This document shows positions 10,006 through 10,820 of a stretch of 64,000 nucleotides of DNA, one piece after another. Every line of letters begins with the position of its first letter. Position 1 is the stretch's first letter. Below the pieces are notes generated by a model. That model was given only the letters and a program-made list of their open reading frames with translations. It was not told where the DNA came from and ran no database searches. The DNA comes from Escherichia coli (GTDB lineage Bacteria; Pseudomonadota; Gammaproteobacteria; Enterobacterales; Enterobacteriaceae), in assembly GCF_030013205.1 (NCBI RefSeq), contig NZ_CP122648.1, one strand, 5' to 3'. The position numbers and the translations under genes were made by a program.

Positions 10006-10140
10006 CGGTTTTCTCTGCTGGCGCAGCAGGTGCCAGTTGTTCAAGCTGGCGTGCGGCAATATTGTCTCTGATTTCTGTTGTCGTCAACAGGCAACGTGCT
10101 ATCATCGAATGGTGTTCTATCCTACTCCGTGAGGTTTACC

Positions 10141-10398
10141 ATGCGTACAACCCAACAATTCAGCATTACATTAACTAACGAAATGGCTGACATGGTGCGC
10201 GCCCGTGTGGCTTCCGGTGCCTATGCTTCAGAAAGCGAGGTCATTCGTGAAGGGCTTCGCGCACTGAATGAGCGCGATAAAGCAATCGAAGCGTGGTTAA
10301 CGCATTCAGCCGCCCCCTCTCTTGATTCTATCCGCGAAACCCCAAACAACGGACGCTCCATTTCACAGGTTCGCGCCGCGATTCGATCCGGGAAGTAA
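10141..10398 (+). CDS. Type II antitoxin, ParD family (ribbon-helix-helix)
   Basis: 85 aa; …RVASGAYASESEVIREGLRALNERD… is the ParD signature; GAGG SD; toxin gene follows after 5 bp. Confidence 0.8.
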   Translation: MRTTQQFSITLTNEMADMVRARVASGAYASESEVIREGLRALNERDKAIEAWLTHSAAPSLDSIRETPNNGRSISQVRAAIRSGK

Positions 10399-10403
10399 TC
10401 TGC

Positions 10404-10703
10404 ATGACATATGAAGTCATCATTACTCCTGAGGCCGAACAACAAATAATCAACCTGCACAGGTATATAACGGAGAAAGCAGGGAACGTCATTGCTGACA
10501 ATTATGCCAATGCGCTTCTTGATTATCTTGATGGGTTTTCTACATTCCCGCATCGGGGCAATAAACGCGATGATATTCGCCAGGGGATGCGGGTAACTCA
10601 TTTCCGCCACAGAACGATTATTGCTTTTGCCGTTGATAGCAGAAAAGTCTTTATTGTCGGTATCTATCATGGTGGGCAAAGTTATGAAACCGATTTCTTA
10701 TAA
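10404..10703 (+). CDS. Type II toxin, ParE/RelE superfamily
   Basis: 99 aa; size, position after ParD antitoxin and C-terminal …FAVDSRKVFIVGIYHGGQ… fit ParE. Confidence 0.75.
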   Translation: MTYEVIITPEAEQQIINLHRYITEKAGNVIADNYANALLDYLDGFSTFPHRGNKRDDIRQGMRVTHFRHRTIIAFAVDSRKVFIVGIYHGGQSYETDFL

Positions 10704-10786
10704 ACTTTTACCCACATCATTCCGGTGTTAGAATTAACCGTCCGCCCCCTCTCTTACTGGCGGATTCGTAGGCTATATAAATCAAA

Positions 10787-10820
10787 GATCCCGGCTCATG
10801 TTTGTGTCGGGATCTTTTTT
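10787..10820 (+). terminator. Rho-independent terminator after the toxin gene
   Basis: agatcccg…cgggatct stem followed by TTTTTT. Confidence 0.6.

Follow-up and report, generated by a model that had tools for sequence, protein, structure and literature searches.

An antisense parDE toxin–antitoxin cassette in the hok/sok slot of a defective lambdoid prophage of Escherichia coli

Within a 64,000-nucleotide stretch of Escherichia coli DNA (the window), we found a 769-bp cassette that carries a two-gene operon of the ParD/ParE type and runs antisense to the early genes of the lambdoid prophage in which it sits. The explanation that we consider very probable as a whole is that this is a canonical ParD/ParE operon forming a prophage moron, with a toxin that would poison DNA gyrase and a role that is likely to be selfish addiction. 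The pair itself was already known: RefSeq, PHROGs, and the record of phage ArgO145 label its members as a ParD antitoxin and a RelE/ParE toxin. What we add is the assignment of the toxin to the ParE clade on profile and fold comparisons, the exact boundaries of the cassette (10058–10826), and its placement in a hok/sok slot upstream of the DUF968, RusA, and Q genes. The features are listed in Table 1.

Table 1. Features of the parDE cassette and of its two flanks, in positions of the window.
Feature	Position	Strand	Details
Left-flank gene, 90-aa hypothetical protein	9733..10005	-	Matches phrog_1212 (E = 2.5e-36); outside the cassette
Whole parDE cassette (moron), 769 bp	10058..10826	+	Delimited by blastn homology breakpoints
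Perfect palindrome, 16 bp (inverted repeat I2)	10075..10090	.	CTGTTG-TCGT-CAACAG, CTGTTGTCGTCAACAG; overlaps the -35 hexamer
Sigma-70-like promoter	10078..10105	+	TTGTCG-16 nt-TATCAT, TG-extended -10; 9/12 matches
Shine-Dalgarno GAGG	10131..10134	+	6 nt before the parD ATG; from sequence
parD, antitoxin, 85 aa	10141..10398	+	ATG at 10141, stop codon at 10396-10398; PGAP WP_040072796.1
parE, toxin, 99 aa, assigned to the ParE clade of the RelE/ParE superfamily	10404..10703	+	ATG at 10404, TAA at 10701-10703; PGAP WP_000220601.1
Small hairpin, parE 3' UTR	10740..10765	+	-10.4 kcal/mol, z = -2.66
Intrinsic-terminator-like hairpin	10784..10820	+	12-bp stem plus 2 inner pairs; A-tract before, U-tract after
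Right-flank gene, 114-aa hypothetical protein	10902..11246	-	Convergent with parE; outside the cassette

The first-pass annotation of this DNA had proposed a ParD/ParE pair, and profile searches bore this out for both genes. The antitoxin matched the ParD_antitoxin family PF03693 (32.1 bits, above the cut-off of 21; E = 1.6e-7), TIGR02606, a model for antitoxins of the ParD family (53.8 bits, with a curated cut-off of 46.2), and the 'antitoxin' profile phrog_6494, which it covered from position 1 to position 85 of 85 (E = 1.8e-55). The toxin matched PF05016 (40.4 bits, above the cut-off of 23; E = 4.5e-10) and the 'toxin' profile phrog_5232 (E = 2.4e-43), relative to which it is full length. 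Because both family models scored above their curated cut-offs, we conclude that the two genes are not chance open reading frames. ParD has the predicted layout of an N-terminal ribbon-helix-helix domain (residues ~6–51) followed by a C-terminal tail that presumably binds the toxin, and its residues 3–52 matched ParD antitoxins in the PDB (3kxe_C, 7ycv, 7b22, 6x0a_a, and 8c24_C) that come from Caulobacter, Vibrio, Mesorhizobium, M. tuberculosis, and others.

The start of the antitoxin gene had to be revised. The longest open reading frame begins with a TTG at 10078, which had been taken as the beginning of the antitoxin; that position is instead the first nucleotide of the -35 hexamer, and we rejected the TTG in favour of the ATG at 10141, on which the GAGG upstream of it, the length of the homologues (almost all of them 85 amino acids, with the N-terminus MRTTQQFS), the coverage of the PHROG profile, and the PGAP call all agree.

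The two genes, with that for the antitoxin first, form a bicistronic operon that has one promoter-like site upstream and one terminator-like hairpin downstream. They lie exactly 5 bp apart (10399–10403), just as the first-pass annotation had it. A promoter scan yielded no more sites in the region than expected from shuffled sequences, and the support for the sigma-70-like promoter therefore comes from its position and its conservation. Overlapping its -35 hexamer is the perfect palindrome, whose core, TGTTGTCGTCAACA, recurs unchanged in ArgO145 as well as in an Stx2a phage that retains parD alone; we regard this palindrome as a candidate operator for ParD. At the other end of the operon, there is no open reading frame from the parE stop (10703) to the terminator-like hairpin, and the next gene is convergent. 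The hairpin itself (10784–10817, with U's running to 10820) matches the earlier proposal that the pair has a terminator of its own, folding on the + strand at -20.7 kcal/mol (z = -4.6), with 0 of 200 shuffles as good. A simple terminator scan did not find it on the + strand because its loop exceeds the limit of that scan. Read on the - strand, the same hairpin has a folding energy of -14.8 kcal/mol (z = -3.9), and the U-rich UUUGAUUU comes after it, suggesting that the hairpin may act as a terminator in both directions. It occupies part of the final 45 bp of the cassette. A search of positions 9900–11000 against Rfam (E ≤ 1) matched no RNA family.

The limits of the cassette came from blastn comparisons of positions 9000–12000 of the window with seven loci. 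The matches to ArgO145 and to the Stx2a phages start exactly at 10058, the homology of the left flank with five other prophages (Qin, ETEC6335, O157 Z1766, and strain 5132 among them) stops at 10022–10056, and the homology of the right flank resumes at 10827 in ETEC6335 and strain 5132. Between these breakpoints (10058 and 10826/10827) lie the promoter, parD, parE, and the terminator, and nothing more. A self-contained antisense insert of this kind has the architecture of an acquired moron, as had been suggested: it is discrete, it brings promoter- and terminator-like elements of its own, and related prophages carry other cargo in its place. Both proteins also fall into the PHROG category 'moron'. 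Base composition is a poor marker of the insert, with parE at ~43% GC and the sequence nearby at 48–55%.

The prophage that harbours parDE is lambdoid and defective. Positions 9900–11000 are 100% identical to the chromosome of the porcine E. coli K_EC180 and to several Dutch ETEC isolates, and as RefSeq annotates that stretch of the porcine ETEC chromosome, the prophage adjoins tRNA-Ser and yccA and bears several signs of decay, namely an IS1 insertion, truncated tail genes, a pseudogenised exonuclease gene, and a frameshifted integrase gene. On the - strand, the genes follow one another in the order O' (truncated), P, DUF1627, DUF977, two hypotheticals, DUF4014, HNH, and the 114-aa gene; then comes parDE on the + strand, and beyond it the 90-aa gene, DUF968, RusA, and Q. 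The neighbouring prophage genes are thus all on the - strand, and parDE alone is on the + strand, antisense within the early-right operon, in its nin-like part, in agreement with the opposite direction of transcription reported at first pass.

Comparison with other prophages revealed what usually stands in this place. The 90-aa gene of the left flank precedes DUF968, RusA, and Q in many lambdoid prophages and anchors a conserved slot, and the protein encoded on the right flank (WP_000206826.1) is the same one that adjoins hokD in strain 5132. We compared ten prophages having the module of the 90-aa gene, DUF968, RusA, and Q. Their slot contains hokD alone (ETEC6335, O157 NE122, MRSN346638, and F5505-C1), hokD with one extra gene (E22), hokD with a two-gene module encoding an HTH protein of 368–373 aa and a ~200-aa protein (5132, 118UI, and TW11681), an NgoMIV-family restriction-modification system (O157:H7 Z1766), or rem-hokD-relE-relB (Qin of K-12). 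The usual occupant is hokD (hok/sok), found in 8 of the 10, and parDE occupies the slot that usually holds it. The exchange is clearest in ETEC6335, which has both flanks in common with the window and 777 bp with hokD in place of 774 bp with parDE. The varied cargo between the same flanks supports the idea, put forward in the first-pass annotation, of a cassette swap at a toxin–antitoxin site.

To describe how widely the pair occurs, we turn to 5426 complete E. coli genomes. The toxin gene is present in 327 of these, always on the chromosome (no plasmid-borne copy was found in this set), and 214 of the 327 carry it at an identity of at least 99%; the positive strains include O26:H11 11368, O103:H2 12009, O111, O45, and O91. 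The antitoxin gene is present in 364, and these counts give no sign of a version with the toxin only. Close protein relatives are found in Salmonella, Yersinia, Enterobacter, and Erwinia, and nine putative cognate ParD–ParE pairs, with partners assigned to each other by the length of their contigs, co-occur across Enterobacterales. The closest plasmid relatives, ~50–53% identical, are on Paraburkholderia plasmids; of the well-known plasmids, IncP-1beta R751 carries the nearest relative, a ParD/ParE-family pair (45.8%).

The same cassette is also found in the inducible Stx2a phage ArgO145, in its early-left arm, where it adjoins an anti-repressor gene. The DNA there is 98.6% identical through the HNH/DUF4014 neighbours and the ParE protein is 100% identical, and parDE again lies antisense to the surrounding genes, in this case those of the pL operon. 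Some Stx2a phages have an intact parD next to a parE that is reduced to a stub of 7 codons (MAYEVPH, then a stop codon). The orphan ParD of these phages is identical to the ParD of the window at 50 of 51 residues in its N-terminal part and at 22 of 34 in its C-terminal part. This pattern of decay, in which parD is kept and parE is lost, fits what would be expected if the toxin were active.

We consider selfish addiction the most likely role for parDE: the cassette would stabilise its own segment of the prophage, in place of the hok/sok locus that it replaced. Because the host prophage is defective, stabilising an excisable element cannot be the current role of parDE here. The exclusion of other phages is possible as a secondary effect. 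It is unlikely, in our view, that anti-phage defence is the main function, with abortive infection or superinfection exclusion ensuing when an incoming phage stops host transcription and ParD decays. Several observations would suit a defence function, in that the variable slot holds a restriction-modification system in another prophage, the cassette has its own promoter-like site and would be independent of the phage early operon, the PHROGs class of the proteins is that of morons, and the orphan ParD of the Stx2a phages could be a counter-measure. However, no defence model of PADLOC-DB 2.0 matched ParD or ParE (E ≤ 0.01), and a literature search on the WP accessions, ArgO145, Stx/ParE/lambdoid, and ParE/prophage found no study of this parDE pair, so that an anti-phage role is without support; moreover, the slot is usually taken by hok/sok, a classic addiction locus.

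Two further readings start from the state of the prophage and from the orientation of the operon, and we give each of them little credence. It is very unlikely that parDE is the dead passenger of a decaying prophage, its toxin attenuated or its promoter silent. The heavy degradation of the prophage and the loss of parE to a stub in Stx2a phages would speak for such a passenger, but both open reading frames are full length against the PHROG profiles, the identity of ParE to the copy in an inducible phage is complete and its near-identity extends over the 214 genomes mentioned above, and the promoter, the operator candidate, and the terminator elements are all conserved. There is likewise only a slim chance that the antisense placement is itself functional, with parDE serving as an induction-coupled switch and the orphan ParD as an 'immunity' gene against the ParE of a resident prophage. 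Such a switch would work through antiterminated early transcription, which would cross the whole of parDE on the opposite strand (in the pR operon here and in the pL operon in ArgO145); upon prophage induction, transcriptional interference would silence parDE, and decay of the labile ParD would set ParE free.

Because PF05016 and the PGAP name 'RelE/ParE family' both span the ParE and RelE clades, we examined the clade membership of the toxin separately. NCBIfam offers no model specific for the toxin, and as a single sequence it had a weak match in the PDB (E = 0.011). An exhaustive search returned 1145 relatives of the toxin at E ≤ 0.001, and we made a profile (A1) of 96 full-length relatives. 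Against all PDB sequences, this profile matched ParE-type toxins only (6x0a, at 9.9e-12, and 5ceg, 8c24, 7ycs, 3kxe, 6xrw, 5cw7, 5czf, 7etr, and 7r5a); RelE, YoeB, HigB, and YafQ were absent from the matches. An AlphaFold2 model of ParE built on A1 had a mean pLDDT of 90.2, and in a Foldseek search of the PDB with this model the best 23 matches were all ParE-type, at query TM-scores of 0.72–0.83, whereas RelE, YoeB, HigB, and YafQ started at an E-value of 2.5e-3 with query TM-scores of at most 0.64. BLASTP found no similarity between the toxin and K-12 RelE (E = 5). Together, the PDB matches of the profile, the Foldseek ranking, and the null BLASTP result place the toxin, as judged from sequence profiles and a predicted fold, in the ParE clade rather than the RelE clade, with identities to the structurally characterised ParE toxins of only 12–24%. 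That it is a RelE-like, ribosome-dependent mRNA endonuclease and not a gyrase poison is extremely unlikely, for although the PGAP label goes no further than the family name, PF05016 covers both clades, and RelE-type folds are present lower in the Foldseek list, the profile returned ParE toxins alone, ParE-type structures took all of the best 23 Foldseek places, E. coli RelE is dissimilar, and the antitoxin encoded with the toxin is of the ParD type, has a ribbon-helix-helix domain, and scores above the TIGR02606 cut-off.

For a toxin of the ParE clade, we infer toxicity, a gyrase target, autoregulation, and neutralisation by ParD from the characterised ParDE systems, which are those of RK2, Caulobacter (ParDE1), Vibrio cholerae (ParDE2), and M. 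tuberculosis (ParDE1/2). By analogy with these, ParD dimers would bind the palindrome over the -35 hexamer through their ribbon-helix-helix domains and repress the operon, and the C-terminal tail of ParD would wrap around ParE and neutralise it. If the supply of ParD, which is labile, were to stop, unbound ParE would poison DNA gyrase and bring about growth arrest. Some ParE-fold toxins behave atypically, and a gyrase target is therefore not guaranteed.

The significance of the pair extends little beyond annotation; the cassette is real but ordinary. The slot, for its part, could be mined systematically for addiction or defence cargo across STEC and ETEC lambdoid prophages. If the ParE of this subfamily is a gyrase poison, the pair would provide a prophage-borne member in the major STEC lineages O26, O103, O111, O45, and O145.

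Among known systems, the best profile and fold matches to the prophage pair are the solved chromosomal and plasmid ParDE complexes, which come from Mesorhizobium opportunistum (5ceg/6x0a), M. tuberculosis (ParDE1, 8c24), Caulobacter (ParDE1, 3kxe), Vibrio cholerae (ParDE2, 7r5a), and P. aeruginosa (6xrw). The prophage pair has in common with them the two-gene operon, the ribbon-helix-helix antitoxin encoded upstream, and a toxin of the ParE fold (query TM-score 0.77–0.83). It differs from them in its toxin, which is 12–24% identical to theirs and belongs to a small Enterobacterales subfamily that in the 5426 E. coli genomes is chromosomal or prophage-borne only. The pair of R751 (kluA/kluB in older annotations) is closer in sequence, with 45.8% identity between the toxins over 96 aa and an unchanged gene order, but it is plasmid-borne and its genes overlap by 4 bp, in contrast to the 5-bp gap in the prophage parDE.

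ParE-fold toxins are likewise found in other prophages, as in ParE_SO/CopA_SO of Shewanella CP4So, PfiT/PfiA of Pseudomonas Pf, and PaaR2-PaaA2-ParE2 of E. coli O157. Prophage ParE-family structures (7etr, 9w3a, and 5cw7) are among our sequence or fold matches, and their relatedness is remote, with ParE2 (5cw7) matching profile A1 only distantly (E = 1.8e-5). One report describes ParE_SO/CopA_SO as maintaining the excised prophage (PMC8706911). The PaaR-PaaA-ParE systems have a third gene for a regulator and an antitoxin that does not bind DNA, whereas parDE is a two-gene operon without such a third component, and its ParD has a ribbon-helix-helix domain of its own.

The remaining comparisons concern the slot. 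The first-pass annotation had placed the relBE/hokD module of Qin at the position corresponding to parDE, and this parallel holds in part. The rem-hokD-relE-relB block does occupy the same slot, directly upstream of the 90-aa gene, ydfU (DUF968), and Q, and it too consists of toxin–antitoxin loci; homology between Qin and the window stops at 10022, and rem begins 50 bp on. However, the left flank alone is common to the two, the Qin modules run in the direction of ydfU and parDE runs against it, and the customary cargo of the slot is hok/sok and not relBE, whose presence in Qin has been described as an insertion at the hokD locus (PMC6379469). Nor does the pair belong with the RelB/RelE systems of the Qin type, as the Qin RelE is unrelated to ParE and our toxin has no RelE homology. 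The 90-aa gene of the left flank is not Rem of Qin, since the two sequences are without similarity. As for hok/sok, the two flanks of parDE enclose hokD in ETEC6335, and hokD serves an addiction-type function, but it belongs to a type I system, made up of a membrane peptide and an antisense RNA and oriented with the early operon, whereas parDE is a type II pair of proteins.

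The slot that holds the parDE cassette here, beside the 90-aa-gene/DUF968/RusA/Q module, accepts defence cargo besides toxin–antitoxin loci, because NgoMIV-family restriction-modification genes occupy it in E. coli O157:H7. In three unrelated strains it carries, next to hokD, a two-gene module encoding an HTH-domain protein of 368–373 amino acids and a hypothetical protein of ~200 amino acids, possibly an addiction or defence pair that is so far uncharacterised.

Features in and around the cassette, its host prophage and the slot, and elsewhere in the window (window positions unless a locus is named)
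Feature	Position	Strand	Source or context
43-aa hypothetical, WP_001342258.1	9974-10105	-	PGAP annotation
parE 3′ region, 80 nt	10707-10765		promoter-like match and small hairpin
HNH endonuclease	11243-11608	-	two genes from cassette
IS1 insertion	about 6153-6850		RefSeq; host prophage
Integrase, frameshifted	about 19272-20290		RefSeq; host prophage
IS009 RNA	555-753	-	Rfam gathering-level match inside tail-gene remnant
PyrD leader	47358-47431	-	Rfam gathering-level match upstream of pyrD
Two-gene module beside hokD	L007 (strain 5132) 735-2469; L009 (118UI) 3708-5433; L012 (TW11681) 3995-5729		same slot
NgoMIV-family restriction endonuclease and cytosine methyltransferase	L006 (O157:H7 Z1766) 3266-5276		same slot

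The Stx2a phage locus LC727840.1 (2584-2872) encodes a ParD antitoxin without a full parE (86% DNA identity), and such an orphan ParD is also present in 37 E. coli genomes. In the phage locus the predicted promoter and candidate operator of parD are both intact. Behind the gene, only 7 codons of parE are left as a stub (MAYEVPH*); next come an ORF for a lipoprotein-like product of 93 aa and a gene for an HTH_3 protein. The DNA-binding half of the antitoxin is identical at 50 of 51 positions and the presumed toxin-binding half at 22 of 34. The orphan could represent plain loss of the toxin or an immunity gene against ParE.

At the left edge of the cassette, the WP_001342258.1 ORF begins on the cassette side of the junction (10057/10058) and extends across it, overlapping the parD promoter on the way, and its Stx2a phage counterpart differs at the C terminus; it is probably an artefact of the junction rather than a gene. 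The parE 3′ region, which had no Rfam match, contains a promoter-like sequence (TTTACC-16-TAGAAT) and a hairpin of −10.4 kcal/mol (10740-10765).

The host prophage (1-20300) is defective, with truncated tail genes and a pseudogenised exonuclease-domain gene in the RefSeq annotation, as well as the tabulated IS1 insertion and integrase frameshift. Despite its carrying dicB and ydfC, DicF was not found by Rfam at the gathering threshold, and the two tabulated RNA elements were the only gathering-level matches across the window.

The HNH endonuclease is also found in the Stx2a phage ArgO145, moving together with the right flank of the cassette. Compared with PADLOC models, it weakly matched PtuB of the Septu system (best E=2.9e-8), a resemblance that probably reflects generic HNH similarity.
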